Shown: positions 23,283 through 42,120 of the stretch, piece after piece
Numbering within the stretch: position 1 is the stretch's first letter
How the letters are laid out: every line of letters starts with the position of its first letter
DNA from: an uncultured Gammaproteobacteria bacterium
Lineage (GTDB): Bacteria; Pseudomonadota; Gammaproteobacteria; JACCXJ01
DNA length: 64,000 bases
Direction: 5' to 3'
Assembly (NCBI GenBank): GCA_963764725.1
Contig: CAVXTM010000016.1
Span: forward strand, 277,598-341,597
Made by a program: the position numbers and the translations under genes
Notes under the pieces: generated by a model
Seen by the model: the letters and a program-made list of their open reading frames with translations, nothing else
What the model was told of the DNA's origin: nothing
Databases searched by the model: none

Positions 23283-23831
23283 TTAGGCGGGAGCGCGGAG
23301 TAGCCGCCGGATGAGATTCTCAATTTCGTCCTTGCGGACTTGGCCGGGCTGGGTGAAGGTGATTCTCTTGTTACGATCAATGATCACCGTGTAGGGTAGC
23401 GCGCCGCTCGTATTACCGTAACTCAGAGCGACTTGGATGGCCTCCCACTCGCCGGTCAGCGTCGGGTAATTGATCCCGGCCTTGTTCGCGAATTCTTGCG
23501 TCGTGCTAAGCTCATCGATCGCGATACCCACGATCTGCAAGCCTTTGACCTTATAGTCTTCTTGAAGCGCGATGAGATCCGGGATTTCTTTTTGGCACGG
23601 AGGACACCAGGTGGCCCAAAAGTTGAGCAGCAAAACTTTTCCGTTCCACTCGCTGATGGGGCGGCTTTCGCCTCTGAAGTCCTTGAGTGAAAAATCGGGC
23701 CGCGCCTGCCCCACCAGGGTCGAAGATGAGGAGTCCGTCCGTGCGCCCAGGTGTTCGCGGAGAAGATAGCCCCCGCCTCCGGCGACGATCAGAAACAAAC
23801 AATAGAATCCAAAACGGTAAGCCGCGCTCAA
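23283..23831 (-). CDS. TlpA/DsbE-family periplasmic thiol:disulfide oxidoreductase
   Basis: WATWCPPCQKEIPDL thioredoxin motif; N-terminal membrane anchor; start overlaps the dsbD stop. Confidence 0.8.
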   Translation of the reverse strand: MSAAYRFGFYCLFLIVAGGGGYLLREHLGARTDSSSSTLVGQARPDFSLKDFRGESRPISEWNGKVLLLNFWATWCPPCQKEIPDLIALQEDYKVKGLQIVGIAIDELSTTQEFANKAGINYPTLTGEWEAIQVALSYGNTSGALPYTVIIDRNKRITFTQPGQVRKDEIENLIRRLLRAPA

Positions 23832-25678
23832 CGGCGCAACACCCGATCGAGGTGCGAGCGAAACGTCTCCGGCTCGACGAACCCGACAAGACGTTTGTTG
23901 CGAAGCTCGGTACCGTCCGGTGTGTAAAAAAGCAAGGCCGGCGGCCCGAAGACTCCGAGGCTCGCAAGCAGCTCGCGGTCCTCCTTATCATTGGCAGTCA
24001 CGTCCACTTTGATAAGCGTTAATTTGCTAAGTTGTTGACCGACAATTTGGTCGGCAAAGGTATGTTTTTCAAGCTCTTTGCACTCCACACACCAGTCCGC
24101 GTAAAGGTCTACCATCACCGGCTCGGCACTATCGCGGGCCGCGCGTAACGCCTTTTCCAAATCCGCCGCGCCTTTGACCCGTGCGAAGCTCAGCGTGAGT
24201 GGCGTCGCGGTGGATCCCTGCGCCAAGAGTGTGGCGCCCGCGAATGGACGCAACATATCGGTGGCCCCCGCGGCCGCGCCGACGATTAAGAGACCGCCGT
24301 AAGTCAAAACCAAAAACCCGGCGCCGCGCGTCAGACGGTGACCCCATGACGCGGTTTTATGGAAGAGATCGAGGGCCCCGAAGAAAATCGCCCCGGTCGT
24401 CAATAACAGCCCCCATAACAATACGGTGAACGCCGGCGGCAGCAAGCGTTCCAGCATTAAGACTGCGACTGCGAGCATCCCAAACCCGAAGAACGCCTTG
24501 ACCTGTTGCATCCAGGGCCCGGCTTTGGGCAGTAGCTGCCCGGTCGAGGTACCCACCGCTATCAGCGGCAATCCCATGCCTATGCCCAAGCAAAAGAGCG
24601 CCATCCCGCCGAGCACCGCGTCACCAGTCTTACCGATATAAATCAAGGCCCCGGCCAGAGGCGGCGCCACGCAAGGTCCGACGATCAGCGCGGAGAACAA
24701 TCCCATCGCCGCGGTTCCCTGCAAGGTTCCGCCTGCTTGCGCGTTGCTCGCCCGGGCGAGGCGCGTCTGCCAACTTGGCGGGAGTTGTAGCTCGAACCAA
24801 CCGAACATCGACAAGGCGAGGCCGACAAAGACCGCAGCAAAGAACACCAGCACCCACGGATTTTGAAACGTCGCTTGCAAGTTGTGGCCGAAGCGTCCGG
24901 CGATCACCCCCATGAGCGCGTAGGTCGCGGCCATCACCACGACGAATACGCTCGATAAAATAAATGCCTTGCGCGTAGTTACGTGCTCGCCTTGACCGGC
25001 GATGATTCCGGAGAGAATCGGGACCATGGGAAACACGCACGGTGTAAACGCGAGGAGGATCCCGAACCCCGCGAACATGGCCAGCGTCGCGAGCACGGCG
25101 CCGCTTTCGAGTTGCCGCGCCAACGCATCGTGCTCGGCAACGGGTTCGCTTGCTTCCCCGGAAGCGGCGCCGGCCGCCACGTGCGCTGGCAATCGCAGGC
25201 TGAGCGTTTTCTGCATCGGAGGGTAGCAGATCCCGTCGTCGGCGCAGCCCTGATACCTAAGGGTTAAACCGACCTCGGCCTCGCCGGGGCCTGGGCGTCT
25301 GAGCGACAGCGGGACCGTGATGGACCCGGTATACACCTCGACGGATCCGAACTCCGGATCTTCCTTGAAGTGCCCCGAGGGAAGATTAACGCGCCCGAGC
25401 CGGACGTCGCCGTCGGTCAGGTCAAATCCGAATTTATCCTTATATAGGTAATAACCGTCGGCGATGTCCCAGCGCGCGGCAAGGGTCACCGGATCTTTGA
25501 TGTCGACCGTGATCCGAAATGCTTCGTCGGGAGGTAAAAACTCCCGGCGGGCCGGTTCGCCCGCGAAACCGCGCTTAAAATCCTCGAATATATTTGCCGC
25601 CCCGCGTTGTTCGTCGGCAAACACAGGTAGCAACGTTCCAAACAACCAAACGAAGCAGACAGCGCTGACGGTCTTCAC
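23828..25678 (-). CDS. dsbD: Thiol:disulfide interchange protein DsbD
   Basis: 616 aa; signal peptide, periplasmic domain, multi-TM core with a Cys pair, and a C-terminal thioredoxin domain (WCVECK). Confidence 0.9.
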   Translation of the reverse strand: MKTVSAVCFVWLFGTLLPVFADEQRGAANIFEDFKRGFAGEPARREFLPPDEAFRITVDIKDPVTLAARWDIADGYYLYKDKFGFDLTDGDVRLGRVNLPSGHFKEDPEFGSVEVYTGSITVPLSLRRPGPGEAEVGLTLRYQGCADDGICYPPMQKTLSLRLPAHVAAGAASGEASEPVAEHDALARQLESGAVLATLAMFAGFGILLAFTPCVFPMVPILSGIIAGQGEHVTTRKAFILSSVFVVVMAATYALMGVIAGRFGHNLQATFQNPWVLVFFAAVFVGLALSMFGWFELQLPPSWQTRLARASNAQAGGTLQGTAAMGLFSALIVGPCVAPPLAGALIYIGKTGDAVLGGMALFCLGIGMGLPLIAVGTSTGQLLPKAGPWMQQVKAFFGFGMLAVAVLMLERLLPPAFTVLLWGLLLTTGAIFFGALDLFHKTASWGHRLTRGAGFLVLTYGGLLIVGAAAGATDMLRPFAGATLLAQGSTATPLTLSFARVKGAADLEKALRAARDSAEPVMVDLYADWCVECKELEKHTFADQIVGQQLSKLTLIKVDVTANDKEDRELLASLGVFGPPALLFYTPDGTELRNKRLVGFVEPETFRSHLDRVLRR

Positions 25679-32430: not shown

Positions 32431-32913
32431 TTAGGCTACCTTCTTGACTTCCCGCACCAAGGCGGCGCAGGCCTCGGCACAGTCCGCACAGCTCTGGTGC
32501 TTGGAGGCGTGTTTGCGGCATTCCTTTTCGCAGTCTGCACAGACCGCGGCACACGCGTTGGCGAACGCCTTCGTGTGTGCCGAATTACTTGCGCTCAACT
32601 GTGCCAGGGCATTGCACGCCGCGATGGTCTCTTGTACCGCGACCGCGCAGCTCGCGAGCGACGTGTCGCCGCCCTTGAAGGTGTTGATGCAGTGATTGAG
32701 GCAAGCGTGCCCCTTGGCCATGCAGGTTTCGGCGGCCATCATGAGGCCGCTGTACTGCCAGCTATGGTGATTGGCCGCCGCGAAGGCTCGCCCGGTGCCG
32801 GTCATGAGCGCGGCCGCGCCCACCGCCGTGGCGCCGGCGAGGAATTTCCTGCGCGCGGACTGACAGGGGGCGTCACCGGTCTCCGGATGGGTATTTGAAT
32901 GTAACTCGGACAT
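32431..32913 (-). CDS. Tat-exported four-helix-bundle Cys-rich (Csp1-like copper storage) protein
   Basis: Twin-arginine signal SARRKFLAGATAVGAAAL; the mature part is Cys-rich with helical C-x3-C/C-x2-C spacing (ACLNHCI, CAVAVQETIAAC, CAAVCADCEKEC, CADCAEAC). RBS AAGGAG precedes the ATG at 32911-32913. Confidence 0.6.
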   Translation of the reverse strand: MSELHSNTHPETGDAPCQSARRKFLAGATAVGAAALMTGTGRAFAAANHHSWQYSGLMMAAETCMAKGHACLNHCINTFKGGDTSLASCAVAVQETIAACNALAQLSASNSAHTKAFANACAAVCADCEKECRKHASKHQSCADCAEACAALVREVKKVA

Positions 32914-33175
32914 ATCAGCTCTCCTTTCAATATGGATGGATAAAGGGTTGCGCAGGCGTGTAACCCCAGTGTCGCTAGGGTGTTGCGGCGCTTTCGGTTG
33001 ATGGGATGGCGGAGGAGAGCTGATTTTCCTGCCCATCCCGGACGAAAGCGTCGCACCTTCTCGGTACGCGGATCGCACGGAGGCGCAAACCCGCCAGGGA
33101 TTATATCAGACCGCTAGATCTCTGGATACTATTTATCTTCTATCTTCGCCGGGCGGCGTTCTGATGGCGCTGCGC

Positions 33176-34729
33176 TCAACGAACCAACAGATCGGTACCG
33201 TACCAGCCGACGATGACGTCCCGGTAATGTTCGGCCTTCCGGGTTTGGAGTCGTTCGAGGGGATTGAAATTGTCCGTCAGAGTCACGCCTTGGGTCTCGT
33301 TCACCGCGACGATCCGGTTCTTCAGCCACGCTGCTTGCTCTGCTCGGAGTCCCGGGGAGTTGAGGTCGATGGGTCGGCCAGCCGCGAGGAAGATGAAGTC
33401 GTTGAAATCCTTGCCGGGTTCGGAAATAAAGACCGAGTGATGGGGAAACACCTGCGCGATGGTGCGCCCGACGGACGCCAGGGCGGCATTCTGGCCGCCC
33501 TCCGAAAAGGCCACGAAATTAAGAGCGAGAATGCCCTGGTCTGACAGGAGCCCGCGCAGTTGAGACAAAGTCTCGACGGTCAAGAGGTGCACCGGTTCCG
33601 ATCCTCCGGTGAAGCAATCATGGATGATCAAGTCGTAAGGGCCGGTCAAGCGGCCGATTTCATAACGTGCGTCACCCACCATGGCTTGGCCCGTGGGTTC
33701 AAACCCAAAGTATTCGGACGCGGCGCTCGCCACTGCCGGATCGATCTCCAAAGTGTCGGTCACGATCCCGTAGCGGTCACGCAGCGTCGTTGCCATATGG
33801 CCGGCGCCCTGGCCGATGAGCAAGGCCCGTGTCATGTTGGGCGCCAAGGCCGGAATCAAATGAACGATCTCCTGGTAGGTGAGCCGGTTGTCGCCACTCG
33901 ATATGCTGGCGGCGCCGATCGTCGAAGCATCCGACATGAGAAGACGAAGATCGCCTTCTCTTTGATCAATCACCCGCACCCAACCGTACAGGCTTTCCCG
34001 CTCGGAACGGATTTGAAAGGGTTCCCCGCCGGTGTAAGCACGCCCCGCGCCGATGGCTTGGGGCAGCAATCCGATCCCGATCGCGGCCAAGAGAACACTG
34101 GGCAGCACGGCGGCGGTTCGCCCCAAGCGCTTTTGCTCATAGATCGCCACGGCCACGGCCAGCGCGAGCAGAGCTATACCCAGACCGATCAGGATCTGGC
34201 GTGAGCCCACCAAGGGAAACAGAAAGAAGCCCAATACCAAGGTGCCGACAACGCTCCCGAGCGTACTGACGGCATAGATCGAGCCGGCGCTGGAACCAAC
34301 GCCTTCCAAGCGTGAGGTCGCGAGCTTGATGGCATAGGGCCCAACCATGCCTAGCATAGTCAGACTGGGCGAGAACAACACCAGCGCGCTCACGAAGGCG
34401 CCCGCTCGCAGGCCCAAAGGGTCGGTCGCCATCAAGACCGGCCGGGTTACCCACGGGATTAAGAGTGTAAACAGGGCCGCGAGTGAAATGACGAGTGAAA
34501 GTCCGGTGCGCTTCGCCCGGTCAGCCCACCGGCCGCCGGCAAAATAACCAATGGCAAGCGCGATCAACGCCACGGAAATCAGCGATGACCAGACGTAGAG
34601 GCTCACGCCGTAGAACGGGGCGATGATGCGCGTACCCAGAAGCTCGATTACCATCACCGCCGCTCCGGTCAGGAACACGGTCAGATAAAGCCCGGCACGT
34701 TCGTAGACGTGCAGTGGTTTGTAAGACAT
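33176..34729 (-). CDS. Spermidine-synthase-family protein fused to an N-terminal polytopic membrane domain
   Basis: About 200 aa with roughly seven TM helices, then the spermidine-synthase fold (LLIGQGAGHMATTL...DLIIHDCF). Confidence 0.7.
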   Translation of the reverse strand: MSYKPLHVYERAGLYLTVFLTGAAVMVIELLGTRIIAPFYGVSLYVWSSLISVALIALAIGYFAGGRWADRAKRTGLSLVISLAALFTLLIPWVTRPVLMATDPLGLRAGAFVSALVLFSPSLTMLGMVGPYAIKLATSRLEGVGSSAGSIYAVSTLGSVVGTLVLGFFLFPLVGSRQILIGLGIALLALAVAVAIYEQKRLGRTAAVLPSVLLAAIGIGLLPQAIGAGRAYTGGEPFQIRSERESLYGWVRVIDQREGDLRLLMSDASTIGAASISSGDNRLTYQEIVHLIPALAPNMTRALLIGQGAGHMATTLRDRYGIVTDTLEIDPAVASAASEYFGFEPTGQAMVGDARYEIGRLTGPYDLIIHDCFTGGSEPVHLLTVETLSQLRGLLSDQGILALNFVAFSEGGQNAALASVGRTIAQVFPHHSVFISEPGKDFNDFIFLAAGRPIDLNSPGLRAEQAAWLKNRIVAVNETQGVTLTDNFNPLERLQTRKAEHYRDVIVGWYGTDLLVR

Positions 34730-34756
34730 GTGGATTGAACAGGCCTTTACCGCCCC

Positions 34757-35731
34757 TCAGGGTTCATCGAGCACGGCAAAGGCCGGCGCATCCCGCGCGC
34801 GGCTCGGTGGTGCCACGCATCCTTCGCTACTGGCTGGCGCCGCGAGCGAGCCACCGGCTTCACCGTGCACGTCTACCCAGAAATGCGGCAAACCCATGCC
34901 CGCCAGCCATGCCGGGCCGGCAGCCTCCTTGAGCATGGCAATCGTCGAGGCACTGCCCGCGATGAGACACAGATCGCCAACTACGCTGACCGACGCCAAG
35001 TGGCGCACCGGCCAACCGGTTTTCGGGTTGAGGATATGACCGTAACGCACACCATCGAGCACGATGCAACGCTCGTAGTCACCGCTACTGGCAAGCCCGC
35101 CGTGGTGCAACGAGACCGTTTGTATGAGGGCCCCCGGACGACGGGGATGGCGTATGCCTATCCGCCACGGGTTGCCATCCGGTCGCGGCCCGATGACCTT
35201 GATGTCGCCGCCTAAATTGACGTGGCCGGATCGGGCGCCGGCCTCGTAGCATAGCGTTGCTGCCCGATCGACGGCGTATTCCTTGACGACACCGCCGAAA
35301 TCAATCTCCATGCCCGGCAGTGGAAATTCGAGAACGGGAGGTGTCCAGCGGAGCCGGTGCCACCCGACCTTGCCGAGTAGGCTTTGGATCTGCGCCCCAT
35401 CGGGCAGCGCGCCTCGATCGAAGCGCCACGCGCGACGCAATATACCAGAGCTGATGTCGAAGAGCCCATCGCTCTCACGGTAACAGGTCGCGGCGTAATT
35501 GAGCAGCCCAACAGTCTCTTGGTCTACGGAGATGCTTCCCCCACGGGATGCCACGCGATTGATCTCCGATAGAAAGCTGTCGCTGCGAAAGCGCGAATAA
35601 CGCGCTTCCAGCCGGTCGACTTCAGCGATGGCGATGCCCGCAATGCGCTCGGCTTCTGCATGGCTTGTGGCAAAGAGCTGGATCTCACAGGGAGAGCCCA
35701 TCGCCTTGAAAGCCAAGCGGTAAGACCTCAT
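34757..35731 (-). CDS. apbE: FAD:protein FMN transferase (ApbE family)
   Basis: AMGSPCEIQLFA...EINRVAS...GGVVKEYAVDRAA...SGDYERC... are ApbE motifs. The start is taken at MRSYRLAF. Confidence 0.75.
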   Translation of the reverse strand: MRSYRLAFKAMGSPCEIQLFATSHAEAERIAGIAIAEVDRLEARYSRFRSDSFLSEINRVASRGGSISVDQETVGLLNYAATCYRESDGLFDISSGILRRAWRFDRGALPDGAQIQSLLGKVGWHRLRWTPPVLEFPLPGMEIDFGGVVKEYAVDRAATLCYEAGARSGHVNLGGDIKVIGPRPDGNPWRIGIRHPRRPGALIQTVSLHHGGLASSGDYERCIVLDGVRYGHILNPKTGWPVRHLASVSVVGDLCLIAGSASTIAMLKEAAGPAWLAGMGLPHFWVDVHGEAGGSLAAPASSEGCVAPPSRARDAPAFAVLDEP

Positions 35732-35896
35732 GCCGTTCATGTTCAAAACCACGTTCGCGGTCGATGTAGCCCGGGTCGAACGCAGCCCCGCCCCGCCGCG
35801 GTGAGTGCCCGCGACTAGTCCCGGTCGCTCAAGCGGTGGCGGAACGTAGCTACGCCACATATTCTCAGGCACATGACGCACGCTAAACAAGGCCCA

Positions 35897-36901
35897 TCAA
35901 AACGTCAGGCTGAAGCTCACGAACAGTGAGCCGTCACGTTCGAGCTGGAACCCGTTGAAGTCGTCCTCCACGGGTTGCAGCCACTCGACGCTCAAACGGT
36001 TGTCCTTAAGCCCGGCGATCGGAATCTCGGCGCTGAGCCCGAAGCCCACGTCCCAGAACTGCCCGCCGTAGTTCTGCGGGAAGTCCACCGGGCTCAGTTC
36101 CGAGTGCACGTCGTTGAACTCGCCCGTGATCTCCCCTTGCGTCGTGTAAACGCCGCGCACCGAGGCGGAGAGCCAGTCGAACAGGCCGATGCTTCCCCAG
36201 GCGGTGGCCTGGAACTGATTGCCCAACGCATAGCCCGACTCGTTCGCGTTCTCGAGGCGATCGATGCCGCTCACTTGCCCCCCCCACGACCAGCGCCCCC
36301 ACGCGCCCGTGTAGGTGAGGTTCGGCAGCAGATCCCAGGTGCCGCTGCCGAGCTGCATGCCATAGTGATAAAAGCCTTGATCCGTTTGATGGCTGCGTCT
36401 GAGCTGCTCGTCGACGGAGCCGGTCGGTGCGCTCACGCCCAGAGCCAGGTGCAGGTGATGTCCGGGCACATCCAACAGTTTGAAGAGCGCGTACATGGAG
36501 GTGTCACCGACGCCGCCCGTGGCTTCGGAGTGGAGCACATGGTGCTGTTCACTGCTGTCGAGCTGAGCGCCTTCGAGGGCCTGCATCGACATCTCCATGT
36601 CCACGAACTGCGGCATGAGCATCAGGTTCAGCCAGTCGGTCGGGGCGTACATGATGTCGATCATGTGCATGTTCATGGTGTGGTCGACCGGCTTCACTTT
36701 GCACGGCACCGAGCCACAGCCATTGCTGGTGATGACGGCATCGCCGACGGCGTCCGAACCGCGCAGGATGTTGCCGTCCTGACTGTGGTACATGTAGCGG
36801 TAGTCGACCATGAAGTCGCCGGCCTCGGGCAGCATGTGGTCGAGCATGACACCCGCCGGCGCGTGGCCGTGGGCGTGCGACGTGGCTATCGTGGGCGTCA
36901 T
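35897..36901 (-). CDS. Outer-membrane beta-barrel protein with a His/Met-rich N-terminal region (possibly CopB/PcoB-like or MetA-pathway porin-like)
   Basis: Ends ...SLFVSFSLTF (C-terminal aromatic). N-terminal SHAHGHAPAGVMLDHM... and Met clusters MNMHMIDIMY, MLMPQFVDMEMSMQ. Its start ATGA overlaps the stop of the upstream ORF. Confidence 0.5.
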   Translation of the reverse strand: MTPTIATSHAHGHAPAGVMLDHMLPEAGDFMVDYRYMYHSQDGNILRGSDAVGDAVITSNGCGSVPCKVKPVDHTMNMHMIDIMYAPTDWLNLMLMPQFVDMEMSMQALEGAQLDSSEQHHVLHSEATGGVGDTSMYALFKLLDVPGHHLHLALGVSAPTGSVDEQLRRSHQTDQGFYHYGMQLGSGTWDLLPNLTYTGAWGRWSWGGQVSGIDRLENANESGYALGNQFQATAWGSIGLFDWLSASVRGVYTTQGEITGEFNDVHSELSPVDFPQNYGGQFWDVGFGLSAEIPIAGLKDNRLSVEWLQPVEDDFNGFQLERDGSLFVSFSLTF

Positions 36902-37195
36902 GGTGCGCCGCCGGCAGCGGACAAGGCTGCGTCGAGGCTGACATTCAACGCCGCATTGACCTGATAGTAGTTGAAATCGGCATAGTCGCCCTCACCACCT
37001 CCGCCGAGCTTGAGCCCGCCCTCATGGGTGTAATACTCGAAACCGGCCTCGAGACTGATCCCCCTAGCGAATTCCTTGCTCACGATCAATCCGCCGCTCA
37101 AGGCCCCATAGCCCGACAGGCGGTGGTCGCTGGAGAAGTTGGCCGGAAGTTTTTTCGGATCGAACGGGATGATTGTGACGTCTCCCGTCAGGTCA

Positions 37196-38460
37196 TCAAA
37201 AATGAACTGTTTGGTATGCTTGCCTGGAGATGAGAAACGGCTGATAGAAATCGGCGGCGTCTTGCGAGTAATAGCGAATCCAGGGCATCACGGTCCAACC
37301 CCGGCCTAGCGGTTGACCCCAGCTCGACTCGAGGGTGTGGGCATCGATCCCCCAATCATCGGAGTAGAAGCGGTATCCGAGATGCAGGGCCGCATTCAAT
37401 GGTTCGACATACTGCACATAGCGCGCGTCCCAAGTCCATTGGTTACGCGTATCGGGCCGCTGTTCCAGGAGGGCCTGAACTTGCCCAAAAAACCCGCCGG
37501 GAGGTGCCAAGAACTGTTGCTCGGGATCGATGAACGCGACCTCCATCACCTTGTAGGGGTTCGCCAGATATCCTGTGCTGCGGGTATAACCGAGGGTGGT
37601 CTCGATGAGCGAGTCATTGGTCAGGACCTGCGTCAGACCAAAACGCGTAGCCCAATCCTGTCGATTGCCCTCCAGGGTGTCGATGCTTAAATCCGTCGTG
37701 TTTGGCACCGGCGTCTTTTCAATCTGGTCCGTGTATGCGGAGGTATCGATGTAGGGAAGAGCGTCGTGATCGAGTATGGCCTCGGTGTCGCTGGCGGTGT
37801 AACTCAAGCCCAGGTTCAAGGTGGTGCGCTTCTGATTGAGGTCCCAGCGCCCGCCCAGGCTGCCCCATCGCGATTCATAGTCGTTCTCCAGGGAGATGCC
37901 ACCGCCCACATCCAGCGCCGCCTCGTTCCACTCGTAGCTCAGCCCGAAGTCCCCCTGCTTGCGCGCCTCGGGTGAGGCGAAGGAGATCGTATCCACCAAT
38001 TGCCCGTTTTTTTGAAAGAGCTGGTTACCATCCTCGTCGAAGAGTACTTCGAGCGGGTTGAATTGAGAATCGAAAAACAGATCACCATTGATGAAAGGCG
38101 TCGCCCCGGAGACCCCATCCGGGGCTGTGGGACAATTCCCCCCCGAACAATTAAAGCCACCGGAAACAAGTCCCTGCGGTGCGGTGGCGATCGGCGTGGC
38201 CCCGGACCAGGTGTCCTGGACGTAGTTGGCAAAGAACTTCAGCCGATCGAAGAGCGTGAGGCTAGCGCTGCCATGGAGGCTGTCCACCAGGATAGGATCG
38301 AACGCGCTCTTCACGCCGAAGAGGTTACGTTCACTCTCTTGGTAGCGGCCATACTGAAAGTTGAAATCGTCACCCTCGGCGGCATGAGCAGGTGAGGGAG
38401 TCAGGCCGGGCAAGGCCAGAGCGGCGGCCGTCAGCGCCCGCGAGGATGCGCTTGCCTGCG
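37196..38460 (-). CDS. DUF3570-type outer-membrane protein
   Basis: TTG start, signal peptide TQASASSRALTAAALALPGLTPSPAHA; ends YQTVHF followed by tandem stops TGATGA. Conserved partner of DUF4266, tlpA and apbE. Confidence 0.6.
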
Positions 38461-38546
38461 TCAATGATTGCGGTCCGGTGGCCGACCGCCGCCCGAAGCG
38501 ACGCGGTAAAAGTAGCCCTGCGAGGTGCCGAAATGCGCCGCGCAGG

Positions 38547-38771
38547 CTAGTAACAGCCACACCCGCCGCCGGCGGTGGACCCACCGGCCAATGCGGCCTC
38601 GCGGCTCATGTAGGTGTGCACGCGTAAGGCGCGCAACGCGGGGTTGGGTTCCAAGGCCATGTGCGGCTTGGCGAGATTGCCGCGTTCCCACGGGGCTACC
38701 GGCGCGCAGCCCGGTAGCCCGATAGCCAGCCCAAGTAGAAGCGCCGTCAGCACCCAGTTAGATTTTTTCAT
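38547..38771 (-). CDS. DUF4266-type small lipoprotein
   Basis: MKKSNWVLTALLLGLAIGLPGCAPVAPWERGNLAKPHMALEPNP...GGGCGCY; lipobox plus the characteristic C-terminal GGGCGC. Confidence 0.7.
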   Translation of the reverse strand: MKKSNWVLTALLLGLAIGLPGCAPVAPWERGNLAKPHMALEPNPALRALRVHTYMSREAALAGGSTAGGGCGCY

Positions 38772-38801
38772 ATAGGGCTTTTCGTCGAACCGACCGAGCG
38801 C

Positions 38802-39296
38802 CTATCCGCCCTCGGGACGCTCCGCCAACAACTGTTCCACCAGCCCACGGAGCTGCTCAGCCTCTCCGCGCCGAAAGCCTAGGTGCACGTGGCGAATGAT
38901 ACCCTGGCGGTCCACCAGATAGGACGACGGCATCGCTTGGACGCCGAAGTCTCGGGGACACTGCCCGTCCGCATCGACAGCGACGGTGAAGCTGGCCGGG
39001 TGTTTTTCAAGAAAGGCCTTCGCATCGTCGGGTTTCTCATCCAAGTTGATCCCCAGAACGTGCAAACCCTGTCCCCGCAACTCGCTGTCCAGATCGTTCA
39101 AGAACGGAAAGGACTGTGCGCAGGGGGAACACCAGGAGGCCCAAAAATCGACATAAACAACCTTGCCGCGCAGTTGCCGCATGTCATAGCGTTGTCCATC
39201 GCCGACCGGGGTCAATGAACAGTTAGGCGCCGCCTGACCAGCTTCGAAACTATAGACGTTCGAATAAACCGCGAGCGCCAGTGCGGTGAGAAGCAC
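38802..39296 (-). CDS. TlpA-family thioredoxin / thiol-disulfide oxidoreductase
   Basis: VDFWASWCSPCAQSFPFL. The GTG start is preceded in-frame by TAG and an 18-codon ATG-initiated extension (MMAKDYDFLPLRISATRS). Confidence 0.75.
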   Translation of the reverse strand: MLLTALALAVYSNVYSFEAGQAAPNCSLTPVGDGQRYDMRQLRGKVVYVDFWASWCSPCAQSFPFLNDLDSELRGQGLHVLGINLDEKPDDAKAFLEKHPASFTVAVDADGQCPRDFGVQAMPSSYLVDRQGIIRHVHLGFRRGEAEQLRGLVEQLLAERPEGG

Positions 39297-39989
39297 CTAT
39301 GAGCGGGTTGCACTAATTCGCAACGGCAGGAAGTCATAGTCCTTAGCCATCATCTTCGGATCCAAGTAGCAGCCCGCGACCAAGCGCCGCCAAGCGCCGA
39401 GCTCAGCGAATCACCGGCTTACTGATTCTGCGTCTGGTAATTGACGTCCCGGTGTGAACCCCCGTAGCGGTTTCGCAATGGTAATTCGAGCGTGTAATTA
39501 TTTACGCCGCCGCGGATTTATCGACGTTATACGATGTACGCCCCGACGCCACTGTTATTGTAGCACCTTTGAGGACTATACGCTGCGTTTCCACCGATGG
39601 GATCCGTGCTGGTCGTGGAATGCCGCCCTTGTCGCGTCAACCTGCACCAGTGACGAGCCCGCAGTGTCGTCCTTCACGCGTGATCGTGAAGACGGACAGA
39701 GTTCGTGGAGCACGTGACGGGTAGATCATCGGTCGCGCCCGCCGCGGAAAGGAGCGATCCGATCTTTGAATCGCCAGACGCGATACGGCGTGTGCCTACC
39801 GCGACCAGCAACGATGCGTGCGAATGCGCTCTTAAAGAAAGTATTTTTCATACATATTCATAATAGTCTCCTTCAGTCGTTAATCGGGAAAAACGGTGAC
39901 CTGGGTATACTAGAGAAGCACTGACGGTCGGGTACGGCGGGAAATCGCCGGCTCGAGGAGAGCGGAGCCTGCCCGTTACGTCCCACTCG

Positions 39990-40560
39990 CTACTCACGTC
40001 GCGGTGCTCGCACGGCGCGATGTCCTATCTCCTCCAGTTTCATGGCGGCCAATACACGCACCGTCTCGTCGGTGTCAGCCAGCGCGTCTTGAAGTAGTGC
40101 GGCGCTCTCCGCATCTGTGCCGGCAGCTGTCCACCGCCATCAGCCTCACCGAAGCGTCGCTATCGCCCAGGGCACTGCGCAGCACATTCATGGCCTCGGT
40201 CTCCGCCATCTTTCGCCAAGGCGTAAACGCCCTGCGCCCGCACGCTCCCGTCCTCGTCCGTCAGCGCGGTCCGAAACACCGCTTGTACCGCAGGATCGTT
40301 GCGTTTGCTGCTCGCAGCCAGGCTGCCCAGCGCCTGCATCCGCGCTTCGGATCATCGGCCGTGCTCAGGTCCATGAGCATATTGAATCGTCATGCTCTGC
40401 CGCCGCGGGATCTTTACTCGTCGCTTGCTGCGGGGCCGCCCGCGAACATTCCGCACCGGTGTCTCCACAACGACCCCATTGCTACTACTGCTACCGTCGG
40501 GAGGTCCGGGCGGCTCCTAAAAGCCACACGTCCGAAGGCAGGGATCGGTCGCAGACTCCG
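39990..40560 (-). pseudogene. HEAT-repeat (PBS-lyase-like) protein gene decayed by frameshifts and stops
   Basis: Minus-strand translation across shifting frames gives DPAVQAVFRTALTDEDGSVRAQGVYALAKDGGD..., EAMNVLRSALGDSDASVRLMAVDS|AGTDAESAALLQDALADTDETVRVLAAMKLEEIGHRAV. Confidence 0.4.
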
Positions 40561-41023
40561 CTCTCTCGGGGGCATAGCGCACTATGCTGCGCGGCGTCAC
40601 GCCCAAAAAGACACTCGAGTGCACGCGTGAGGCGTCATGCGCTGGCAGGAGAGCCGTGACCACGCCTTCGGGCGTCACTACGTCATGGAAGCGGGTACCC
40701 GTTTTCTGCCGAATTCGCCGAGCACCTCTGTCCACGGGGCCCGCGTGACATTCAAGCTCATCAGTGCCGCGATGGAGCTCGATTTCCACCGATGCGGAAG
40801 GCCCTGCTTTCAAAAGCGCTCGAGACGGCGTGTCAGGCCCTGCGATAACATGGCTGTTCCACAGCATCATTCCCGGCACCAACGAAAGCAGCCCGACCTC
40901 CGCCAGCCCGTCTCTTACGCCGCGTTCGAGTACTGCTCATCGAATAAACACCCTGCGTGGCCATGTCTGCTGTCGTTCTAATTCTCCGACCGTTCGGAGT
41001 CTATGATTCGTAGCCGCGCTTGT

Positions 41024-41047
41024 AAATGCGACAAATTGTCGCACCCC
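41024..41047. repeat. Copy 2 of the palindromic repeat AAATGCGACAAATTGTCGCACCCC (plus orientation)
   Basis: Same 24-mer as at 32188-32214; forms an inverted pair with 41158-41180. Confidence 0.6.
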
Positions 41048-41157
41048 CACACTCAACATCGAGACCGGGGAGCGGCAAGTCACCGGTACGCTATCCTGCT
41101 TTTGCCTTTCGTTAATCCCGTAGTTTATATAATAGAACTCTGGTCATGGAATCAGTT

Positions 41158-41180: not shown

Positions 41181-41336
41181 TTCACACGCGATGCTCAGTG
41201 AGATAGTCTTCTTAGCAGGGAACAGCTAGTGATGCAGGGTACGACCAGTTGTCTCTGGCGTGCTTTTTAGTTGGTAGAAACCAGTTATATCTGTTCTGTG
41301 AATCCATAAGTCAATACAGGAACCATTTATGCCAAG

Positions 41337-42120
41337 CTTAAACATAAGAAGACTGACGATGTGCTCGCTGACGACCTTGCTGTGCACCGCAGGGCCGAAT
41401 GTCTTTGCCCACACCGGCGTTCAGAATGCGGCTGACCGCAGGGACGACGACCTATAACGGTTTCACGATAACGCACGGCTGTGGCGGCCATGATGAGACG
41501 AAGCCTCCGTTGAAGGTGTTGGGACAGTCGGCGGTGTTTCCGTTCGGAGTCGCCGTGTGGACGAACCTCAACCCACCGGTGAAATCATACCGACGGGTGG
41601 CCAGGGTATCGTCAGCGAGGACAGATGATTTTATCACTCTCAATGTCGGCGGTATTCAGGATAACGATCCCTTCGCAAAAACAGAGGAAGAGACGGATGA
41701 TCTTGAAAACGTGCGTGCGCTCAATTGGAAGAATGGCAAACTAGCGACCAACCTGGTCGGTATACCCGAGTGGCGGGCATCGGCGCCGACCATTCTGGAT
41801 AATTGCGTGTCGGCATTGCACGTGCGTATCGCGGTTGCCAACTGGTGCAAAAAGAACGCAAACGAAAAGAACGACCATGCTAACAACCGGGCCGACTGGT
41901 GGTTCACGGGACCGGACCAGACCGGGAGCACGCAGTTCGTCGATCCCGATCTGGTTCAGGAGGACTTCTGGACGACATTGACCGTTAACAACCCGGGCAA
42001 CCCGGACGCCCCTGCATGCACCGGGGAGACTCGCGAGGTTGCGGTCCAGCCGACGGGTGCGGACATCGATACCTACCTGCCATACAAGCCGTTCACCAAG
42101 AATCCGGGACCGTATTGATC
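41337..42120 (+). CDS. Exported protein with a mature N-terminal His and a frameshift just after the signal peptide; low GC
   Basis: ATG at 41337 gives MPSLNIRRLTMCSLTTLLCTAGPNVFA|HTGVQNAADR and then stops. The body continues in the +1 frame as ...TTTYNGFTITHGCGGHDETKPPLKVLGQSAVFPFGVAVW... to 42120. GC is about 52-55%. Confidence 0.45.

Follow-up and report, generated by a model that had tools for sequence, protein, structure and literature searches.

A disrupted gene cluster for a DUF3570 protein fused to a methionine-rich barrel, with a putative link to copper, in an uncultured gammaproteobacterium

Introduction

Gene clusters that combine an ApbE flavin transferase, a DUF3570 protein, a thioredoxin-like protein and a DUF4266 protein (with a C-terminal CXC), with or without DsbD, are described in the retrieved passages of Meheust et al. 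(eLife 10:e66878, 2021; PMC8238504); this quartet is hence already known and not novel. According to the same passages, the DUF3570 protein of Chlorobium luteolum is flavinylated by its own ApbE at two [S/T]GA[S/T] motifs, and the ApbE used there for DUF3570 was an exported one. Here we describe a variant of this cluster in a 64,000-nucleotide stretch of DNA from an uncultured Gammaproteobacteria bacterium (contig CAVXTM010000016.1; hereafter, the window), in which DUF3570 forms the N-terminal half of a two-barrel protein; in our best reading, the window shows the recent decay of one copy of an outer-membrane redox cluster that is conserved and associated with copper. A preliminary description of the same DNA had recognized the quartet but considered it functionally unassigned, which does not apply to DUF3570, an experimentally demonstrated substrate of ApbE flavinylation in the passages cited above.

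All four components of the system of Meheust et al. are present in the window, together with the two motifs, the CXC, a CxxC and a DsbD about 9 kb away. The window differs in that DUF3570 is fused to a second barrel, that ApbE has no signal peptide, that the thioredoxin matches Redoxin/AhpC-TSA and not PF13899, and that the copy is disrupted; extra partners recur in related loci, as detailed below.

The second barrel has likenesses of its own. It shares the 12-stranded barrel fold of the COG4313 channels (Pput2725-type, PDB 4RL8; PF13557, Phenol_MetA_deg) and of FapF (PDB 5O65), at only 17-18% identity to these and with no Pfam match for the window domain at E <= 0.01; specific to its family are Met-rich strands 1-3, a HAPAGVMxDHM segment, a Cys pair, and the fusion to another barrel. 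The PcoB/CopB porin (PDB 7PGE), a barrel preceded by a Met/His-rich segment, provides a functional analogy for copper passage; membership in CopB/PcoB (PF05275) was rejected, as no sequence similarity or specific fold similarity was found. The MtrAB-type porin-cytochrome conduits and other extracytosolic metal reductases are comparable in concept: an external metal is reduced by electrons that are delivered to a barrel in the outer membrane. Upstream open reading frames with DUF2946 (Bordetella bp2923, Rhodobacter CutF) are copper sensors (PMC9426467), and they resemble a DUF2946-like protein with a CPIC motif that precedes stand-alone relatives of the barrel; no such gene was found in the window or in the fused clusters, and the match lies below the Pfam cutoff.

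Sequence comparison

Relatives were collected by a scan of one genome per GTDB species, which yielded 541 tblastn-confirmed places of the barrel domain. Fusions and neighbours were counted on the best 79 of these 541 loci, a large number of them truncated where the contig stops. Compared loci are labelled L001-L009, L013, L020, L037, L038, L054, L062, L067, L071, L075, L080, L081 and L085-L088; among the 79 loci, the nearest relatives of the window are L005-L009, which are of Illumina type, and L003 is the sister of L004. Protein homologues of the 334-residue open reading frame (ORF) described below numbered 522 at E <= 1e-3; the protein P0121 belongs to the window protein's own 90% cluster, and its source contig is ~93% identical to the window.

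Domains were called with Pfam and NCBIfam, RNA families with Rfam, and homology across reading frames with tblastn. Invariance of Met and Cys was evaluated in an alignment of 18 sequences and then in one of 91 sequences; the latter was also used for the structure model (AlphaFold2).

The DUF3570-barrel fusion gene

The DUF3570 profile (PF12094) is covered over its full length by the minus strand of the window, but split over two reading frames. The first part (37196-38584, frame A; a 462-residue ORF; Pfam E 1.5e-96, profile positions 2-354 of 427) contains both flavinylation motifs, DTWSGATP and DGVSGATP, and ends with ...QAYQTVHF at CAT TTT TGA; in a translation of the three minus-strand frames (36890-37300), this stop falls at profile position 354. 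At a run of five T (37198-37202, minus strand) the three-frame translation and the relatives indicate a change into the +1 frame, which runs on without stop, through ...FIFDDLTGDVTIIPFDPKKLPANFSSDHRLSGYG... to the stop behind ...YYQVNAALNVSLDAALSAAGGAP, and provides the last ~100 residues of DUF3570 (36898-37209, frame B; Pfam E 4e-17). The stop-free stretch of this frame (36901-37287) holds profile positions 351-426, and because Pfam places these positions in the second frame, the 67-codon ORF inside it (36898-37101) is the C-terminal end of DUF3570. No single uninterrupted DUF3570 coding sequence was found in the window.

The end of DUF3570 is followed by a His-rich linker (36879-36905, minus strand), which compared with L003 and L004 contains two out-of-frame indels, one additional C at 36905 and ten additional nucleotides, TAGCCACGTC, at 36879-36888; with these, the reading returns to frame A, and the path through the whole fusion gene is A to B to A. 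Behind the linker lies the 334-residue ORF (35897-36901, minus strand), which the preliminary description had taken for a second outer-membrane protein added to the quartet, and for a gene that overlaps the 67-codon ORF by ATGA. The His-rich and Met-rich tracts quoted for it (HAHGHAP, MNMHMIDIM and MLMPQFVDMEMSMQ) are all present. The overlap is present as well, but it is a by-product of the frame disruptions in a single fusion gene, and there is therefore no translational coupling of two real genes. No signal peptide was found in the 334-residue ORF, no Shine-Dalgarno sequence before its start, and no Pfam (E <= 0.01) or NCBIfam match of its own; it is a stranded domain without export signal.

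The Met/His-rich partner asked for in the preliminary description does recur, in the 541 places mentioned above and with invariant Met, and its homologues are of two kinds. In the first, the barrel stands alone and has its own signal peptide, after which the conserved region starts at ...HAPAGVMxDHM (e.g. P0074). In the second, the ...HAPAGVMxDHM segment follows in frame after the DUF3570 C-terminus, via a His-rich stretch. P0121 (695 residues) is of the second kind: it is in frame across both frameshift sites of the window (...FLISRQAFSTTVVDEETGDV... and then ...AGGGHESHEHAHGHAPAGVMLDHM...), and leads from DUF3570 through GGGHESHEHAHGHAPAGVMLDHM into the barrel in one frame. Uninterrupted fusions were found in 76 of the 85 barrel-domain ORFs (read stop to stop, with DUF3570 reaching from before residue 120 to past residue 440), so that the supposed second protein is, in the great majority of related ORFs, the C-terminal domain of one DUF3570 protein. 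The intact fusions include those of Methylomicrobium lacus (complete genome), Methylobacter luteus, Methyloglobulus morosus, Nitrosomonas sp. Nm51, and L005-L009. The longest proteins in the searches had ~810 residues; the worry that a full-length fusion might not exist was dismissed, as a length of ~790-810 residues represents the whole protein. The linkers of intact relatives comprise 22-35 residues with 4-9 His and mostly end in Ala-Pro, directly before AGVM. At least one flavinylation motif of the form [ST]GA[ST] is present in 60 of 74 fusions, and at least two in 30 of 74.

The barrel domain of the window was modelled (pLDDT 94.3, pTM 0.90) as 12 strands with an ordered N-terminal segment. 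Profile-to-PDB matches of the barrel family were at E 0.07-0.45 (E 0.45 versus 4RL8); a PF13557 profile match is absent from the window domain and present in some of its homologues. Fourteen Met are located in the first 110 residues of the 334-residue ORF and two in the other 224, which is a share of 12.7% in the first 110 residues against a background of 2.1% in the intact proteins of the window; in 78 fusions, the median is 15% in the first 100 residues of the second barrel. The share of Met in the DUF3570 part is 0.65%. C62, C67, M78, M80, M84, M94, M96 and M104 are invariant in the 18 sequences, and M78, M80 and M96 across all 91. The invariant Met set is carried by the first three strands and the N-terminal segment, and in strands 2 and 3 Met alternates with aliphatic residues; on the basis of this alternation, the invariant Met would face the barrel lumen. 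In the DUF3570 part, the first flavinylation motif is located at the end of the third strand and the second in the long loop after it, which, given the usual periplasmic N-terminus, would be outer-facing or folded into the lumen.

This family of DUF3570 proteins fused to a COG4313-type Met-rich barrel, with its extended cluster, appears to be undescribed. The fusion was not found in the literature searched, in which the 2021 flavinylation paper was the only relevant one; its retrieved passages are silent on the fusion.

Unusual copies of the gene were observed in several relatives. Tandem fusion copies, two or three in number, occur in L037, L071, L080 and L081 (Methyloglobulus-like and uncultured gammaproteobacterial genomes); copy 1 in L080 is frameshifted into five pieces, and in L007 (82-4299, minus strand) a remnant cluster with an internal deletion lies next to an intact cluster. 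A ~86%-identical Logan contig (L001, 1-195) lacks the N-terminal part of DUF3570 as well as DUF4266 and tlpA; there, a gene with the end ...CHLPGHYEAGM..., cupredoxin-like as judged by eye, lies upstream of a remnant of the DUF3570 C-terminus and the barrel, and a frame change is required in the His linker of this locus, too.

Organization of the cluster

The gene order is p239, HEAT-repeat protein, small secreted protein, TlpA-like thioredoxin, DUF4266 CXC lipoprotein, DUF3570-barrel fusion, ApbE, and a fused major facilitator superfamily (MFS)/spermidine-synthase-like protein, here followed by Csp1. The five ORFs named in the preliminary description were recovered on the minus strand with unchanged coordinates, and Pfam bore out the identities of the TlpA-like, DUF4266, DUF3570 and ApbE proteins; the bounds of 34757-39900, however, are too narrow, as the cluster extends over 32.4-42.1 kb of the window and the lesions reach to ~42100. 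Among the 79 loci, DUF4266 is found in 73, the small secreted protein in 69, tlpA in 67, apbE in 63, a HEAT_2 protein in 45, the fused MFS/spermidine synthase in 44 and p239 in 32.

The tlpA gene is located at 38802-39353 (minus strand). Pfam assigns 38802-39296 to Redoxin/AhpC-TSA (Redoxin E 2e-26); the match of the product to the ResA subfamily (E 1.4e-29) is below its cutoff, and the CxxC motif is WCSPC. The DUF4266 lipoprotein gene (38547-38771, minus strand; PF14086, E 4e-20, profile positions 1-49 of 50) is intact, with the lipobox LPGC and the C-terminus GGCGCY (CGC).

The apbE gene is intact also (34757-35890, minus strand; Pfam E 5.5e-71, profile positions 1-256 of 266), with a probable start at an ATG near 35740 or 35731. 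No N-terminal hydrophobic segment was seen in the window ORF, as judged by eye. Of ten ApbE relatives checked (L005, L008, L009, L013, L020, L038, L054, L062, L067, L075), several start directly before the conserved Y-x-x-x-F-K-A-M-G, and no hydrophobic leader was seen by eye in the upstream frame of these ten.

The fused MFS/spermidine-synthase-like membrane protein (33176-34729, minus strand; NCBIfam NF037959, E 2.4e-59, profile positions 2-480 of 480) is intact and represents the conserved last gene of the cluster. Behind it lies a gene for a four-helix-bundle copper storage protein of the Csp1 family (32431-33078, minus strand; TIGR04401, E 3.2e-34, 118.3 bits versus a cutoff of 100, profile positions 3-151 of 151), with a twin-arginine-like RRKFLAG in its translation; among the fetched loci, Csp1 is near the cluster elsewhere only in the closest relatives L003, L004 and L007. 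An intact dsbD (23828-25678, minus strand; Pfam DsbD_N, DsbD_TM and Thioredoxin_7) is located ~9 kb from the cluster and is the likely electron source for the TlpA-like protein; in L085, DsbD is encoded directly upstream of the fusion gene.

The small secreted proteins are an unannotated family of 149-165 residues (e.g. L005 4964-5413, L006 4961-5443, L013 5115-5612, L062 4725-5219), whose genes adjoin tlpA in the 69 loci and often occur in two or three tandem copies. Their signal peptide ends in A-x-A and is followed by His in at least 80% of 87 sequences, which would give a mature protein with N-terminal His; other motifs are TD..vtC, GD..ySP and HC.t....HtgT. No Pfam or NCBIfam family was matched, and the PDB matches were weak and Ig-V-like. 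The protein could be a copper protein of the histidine-brace type.

The p239 gene (41329-42118, plus strand) encodes a ~260-residue secreted protein of unknown family, for which no Pfam, NCBIfam or PDB sequence match was found; an assignment to CorA/MopE was ruled out, with no PDB sequence match at E <= 1. Its mature form, too, starts with His (FA/HTGVQ), and its homologues in L005 (264 residues) and L006 (258 residues) are intact. In M. lacus (L013 3867-5099), p239 follows a copy of the small protein within one fused protein.

Disruption of the cluster

Lesions were detected in five consecutive genes: p239, the HEAT gene, the small-protein gene, tlpA and the fusion gene. In contrast, DsbD, GroEL, citrate synthase, GlnE, PurH, AccC, ApbE, the MFS/spermidine synthase and Csp1 are intact and of full length.

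In tlpA, a TAG (39299-39297) is located in frame directly before a GTG (39296-39294) that starts the ORF 38802-39296, and an 18-codon stretch beginning with ATG, MMAKDYDFLPLRISATRS, precedes it; this arrangement was confirmed. Compared with L004, the window has 12 extra nucleotides, including the TAG, in the signal-peptide region (...LRISATRS, the stop, then VLLTALALAVYSNVYS/FEAG), and the TAG follows after eight codons of the ancestral start region. The tlpA genes of eight relatives start with a short signal peptide of the form M-(N/K/H)-x-x..., e.g. MNYRVALCAVLALTVYSNVDA and, in L004, MHLRIIAVSCAALALTLAVNTHA. Of the two possibilities offered before, a nonsense-interrupted tlpA or the deliberate use of an internal GTG, the interruption is upheld by comparison with the relatives. 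The GTG ORF keeps the uncharged hydrophobic stretch MLLTALALAVYSNVYS, with no charged n-region and no Shine-Dalgarno sequence before the GTG; its product could be weakly made and exported, or the gene could be dead.

The region upstream of tlpA, where a leader peptide or the stump of a decayed gene had been suspected, contains the latter: a pseudogene (39419-39851, minus strand) of the ~150-residue secreted protein that is normally encoded directly upstream of tlpA. The translation of 39847-39422 (minus strand) matches the 149-residue small protein of L005 with 39% identity over 151 residues (tblastn E 1e-19), with at least three in-frame stops and several frame changes needed. The GAAGGAGA box (39874-39867) and the subsequent 9-codon ORF MNMYEKYFL (39861-39832), together 39832-39874 on the minus strand, are present as described and lie at the 5' end of this dead gene, whose homologous reading starts in another frame at an ATG at 39851 (MKNTFFKSAF...), a start that the 9-codon ORF overlaps. 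In 39300-39900, no Rfam family was found and matches to promoter and terminator motifs were at chance level; with the homology to a protein gene, a leader peptide, attenuator or riboswitch upstream of tlpA was ruled out. The 10-nt tandem at 39367-39386 (CGGCGCTTGG twice on the minus strand), which had been assigned to the supposed leader, exists but is located in the spacer between the pseudogene and tlpA; it is a single copy in L003 and L004 and is read as slippage in unconstrained DNA.

The HEAT gene is a remnant as well (39990-41083, minus strand), with at least five short ORFs in three frames. A 362-residue protein of L005, which is HEAT_2 by Pfam, matches 41047-40202, 40764-40090 and 40115-40014 in frames -1, -2 and -3 (tblastn). 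Across the HEAT and small-protein genes (39366-41048), the window is 76% identical to L004 with 126 gaps, against ~93% in genes. In p239, the signal peptide and HTGVQ are encoded in one frame (41329-41457) and the remainder in another (41399-42118) (tblastn); the shift stems from one nucleotide near 41433 that the window has in addition to those of L004 and L005.

At the T5 site of the fusion gene, L003, L005 and L006 are in frame, and L004 carries a different insertion of +4 at the same place. A frameshift shared by descent between the window and L004 was ruled out, because the insertions differ (+1 versus +4) and L003 is in frame.

We consider it somewhat probable that the fusion gene and tlpA have undergone real and recent decay, added to older decay upstream. 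The lesions are restricted to the five neighbouring genes, and they include insertions of 10 nt and 12 nt and nonsense substitutions, which are not typical random read errors. On the branch leading to the window, the barrel accumulated 13 non-synonymous and 8 synonymous substitutions, compared with 25 and 79 in other segments (Fisher p = 0.0013). Decayed paralogues are known from relatives (L080 copy 1, L007), and a frameshifted fusion copy is present in the Illumina metagenome-assembled genome (MAG) L085 (UBA7658).

Several observations weigh against such decay. Over 78 codons of the frame-B segment, the rate of non-synonymous change (dN) is 0 and that of synonymous change (dS) ~0.4 versus L003 and L004, and the window branch shows 10 synonymous and no non-synonymous substitutions in this segment. 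The barrel has a pairwise dN/dS of 0.27-0.32, which falls inside the range of the controls (0.21-0.36); if the fusion gene has lost its function, the loss must accordingly be of recent date. Further, one lesion is located in a homopolymer (the T5 run), and split versions of the fusion gene occur in other long-contig MAGs.

Some of these observations favour an artefact of local assembly that affects tlpA and the fusion gene: the cluster would be intact in the organism and the lesions would be consensus errors, caused for example by collapsed or mis-polished operon copies in a long-read MAG; this could also cover the p239 frameshift. The strong purifying selection on the shifted segment and the lesion in the T5 run would then be expected, and the sequences of other relatives point in the same direction: L003 and L004 have many singleton 1-nt indels, citrate synthase is in three pieces in L003, L002 is split at a T6 run on a contig at 3.79x, and the Illumina-type relatives L005-L009 are intact. 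The two to three tandem paralogues of some relatives could confuse an assembly, and a mosaic of dS values along the locus likewise fits. However, ~18 kb of other coding sequence in the window is undisrupted, the 10-nt and 12-nt insertions and base-substitution stops are of another nature, the decay of the HEAT and small-protein genes, which are also fragmented in L004, is beyond the reach of error, and L085 demonstrates that real inactivation does occur. We consider an artefact less probable than decay.

The dS mosaic itself was observed along 33143-39300 versus L003-L006: for tlpA, dS is 0.09 versus L006 and 1.7 versus L005, and for the shifted DUF3570 segment it is 0.42, against 0.11-0.17 in neighbouring genes. 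This suggests strain recombination or a mixed consensus.

Link to copper and proposed function

Met- and His-rich ligand sets are classic soft-metal ligands. The invariant Met and Cys of the barrel, the linkers with their 4-9 His, the mature N-terminal His of the small partner protein, the adjacent Csp1 and the host range fit a link to copper; the best 80 loci belong almost all to Methylococcales, Nitrosomonas and related uncultured Gammaproteobacteria. From this sequence evidence, we infer that the fusion system is copper-associated and a candidate for copper handling.

In Hyphomicrobium-like contigs, a protein of 131-138 residues with a CPIC motif is encoded ahead of stand-alone barrel homologues (L086 6434-6829, L087 6429-6845, L088 486-902); its DUF2946 match is of full length but weak and below the Pfam cutoff (E ~0.01, 17 bits versus 23.7). 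The idea that this gene belongs to the small family adjoining tlpA was ruled out, since the two have no similarity and the DUF2946-like match was found instead. L087 and L088 each carry a tandem duplication of the barrel gene.

As a tentative proposal, the DUF3570-barrel fusion and its partners (the TlpA-like, DUF4266, ApbE, small N-terminal-His, HEAT and MFS/spermidine-synthase proteins) may constitute a flavin-dependent outer-membrane cupric reductase and Cu(I) channel that supplies the particulate methane monooxygenase and the ammonia monooxygenase in Methylococcales and Nitrosomonas, with the lineage of the window losing one copy. Electrons from DsbD would reach the flavin mononucleotides (FMN) on the DUF3570 barrel by way of first TlpA and next the DUF4266 CXC lipoprotein; at the outer membrane or within it, the FMN would reduce Cu(II); Cu(I) would pass through the Met-lined second barrel; and the His-rich linker and the small proteins with N-terminal His would take up the metal in the periplasm.

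Gammaproteobacterial methanotrophs and ammonia oxidizers depend on copper monooxygenases, and how copper passes their outer membrane is not settled. If true, the proposal would answer this question for bacteria that do not make methanobactin, with a concrete candidate that is testable by knock-out in cultivated strains (Methylomicrobium lacus, Methylobacter luteus, Methyloglobulus morosus, Nitrosomonas sp. Nm51). It would also provide a plausible substrate for the DUF3570 flavinylation system in one large clade. For annotation, the fusion means that the calls "transporter", "hypothetical" and "partial DUF3570" in many MAGs are fragments of one gene; the locus in the window should be labelled as pseudogenes or compared with the reads.

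Against the proposal, the canonical [ST]GA[ST] motif is absent from 14 of 74 fusions, the ApbE without signal peptide leaves the extracytosolic flavinylation of an outer-membrane substrate unexplained, the nearest solved folds carry hydrophobic molecules or amyloid subunits, and 25 DUF3570 clusters contain the iron transporter VIT1, with iron suggested for some of them in the retrieved passages of Meheust et al. (PMC8238504). The architecture could accordingly be as described and the substrate not copper, but ferric iron, another redox-active metal or metalloid, or a hydrophobic compound that passes a COG4313-type barrel. Besides the VIT1 clusters and the solved folds (a hydrophobic-molecule channel and an amyloid exporter), the PF13557 label on many homologues and the occurrence of homologues in Hyphomicrobium, Myxococcota and Burkholderiales are in favour of this. 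However, the DUF3570 part has neither the invariant Met ladder nor the His linker, most hosts are users of copper monooxygenases, Csp1 is adjacent, and a DUF2946-like gene lies upstream of stand-alone copies; we regard a substrate other than copper as unlikely, if by no means far-fetched.

Other explanations of the frame changes

Full-length products could still arise by programmed recoding, which would call for a prfB-like +1 shift at CAU UUU UGA, another shift in the linker, and reinitiation after termination at TAG-GTG in tlpA. At the T5 site, UUU UGA permits re-pairing of tRNA-Phe in the +1 frame at the stop; at the +4 insertion of L004 in the same spot (GAU UGA UGA), the take-off and landing codons are the same; selection acts on the downstream frame; and TAG and GTG are adjacent in tlpA. 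The slippery stop of a prfB-like site is present, but the reading frame continues without a break through all these sites in 76 of 85 relatives, among them L003 and the nearest Illumina genomes, no Shine-Dalgarno-like stimulator was found ahead of the T run, restoring the barrel would take two or three separate events, two of them in a non-slippery repeat of His codons, and the frameshifts in other MAGs are at unrelated positions. We therefore hold recoding to be very improbable.

The initial reading of the 334-residue ORF as an independent gene for an outer-membrane protein, coupled by ATGA to a real 67-codon ORF, is ruled out for practical purposes by the Pfam frame analysis and the fused relatives: an ATG at 36901 does overlap the TGA of the upstream frame, and a gene caller annotated exactly the 334-residue protein (P0001), but this ORF has neither signal peptide nor Shine-Dalgarno sequence, the 67-codon ORF encodes DUF3570 profile positions 351-426, and stand-alone homologues have their own signal peptides and start at the HAPAGVM segment (P0074), whereas the nearest relatives are fused.

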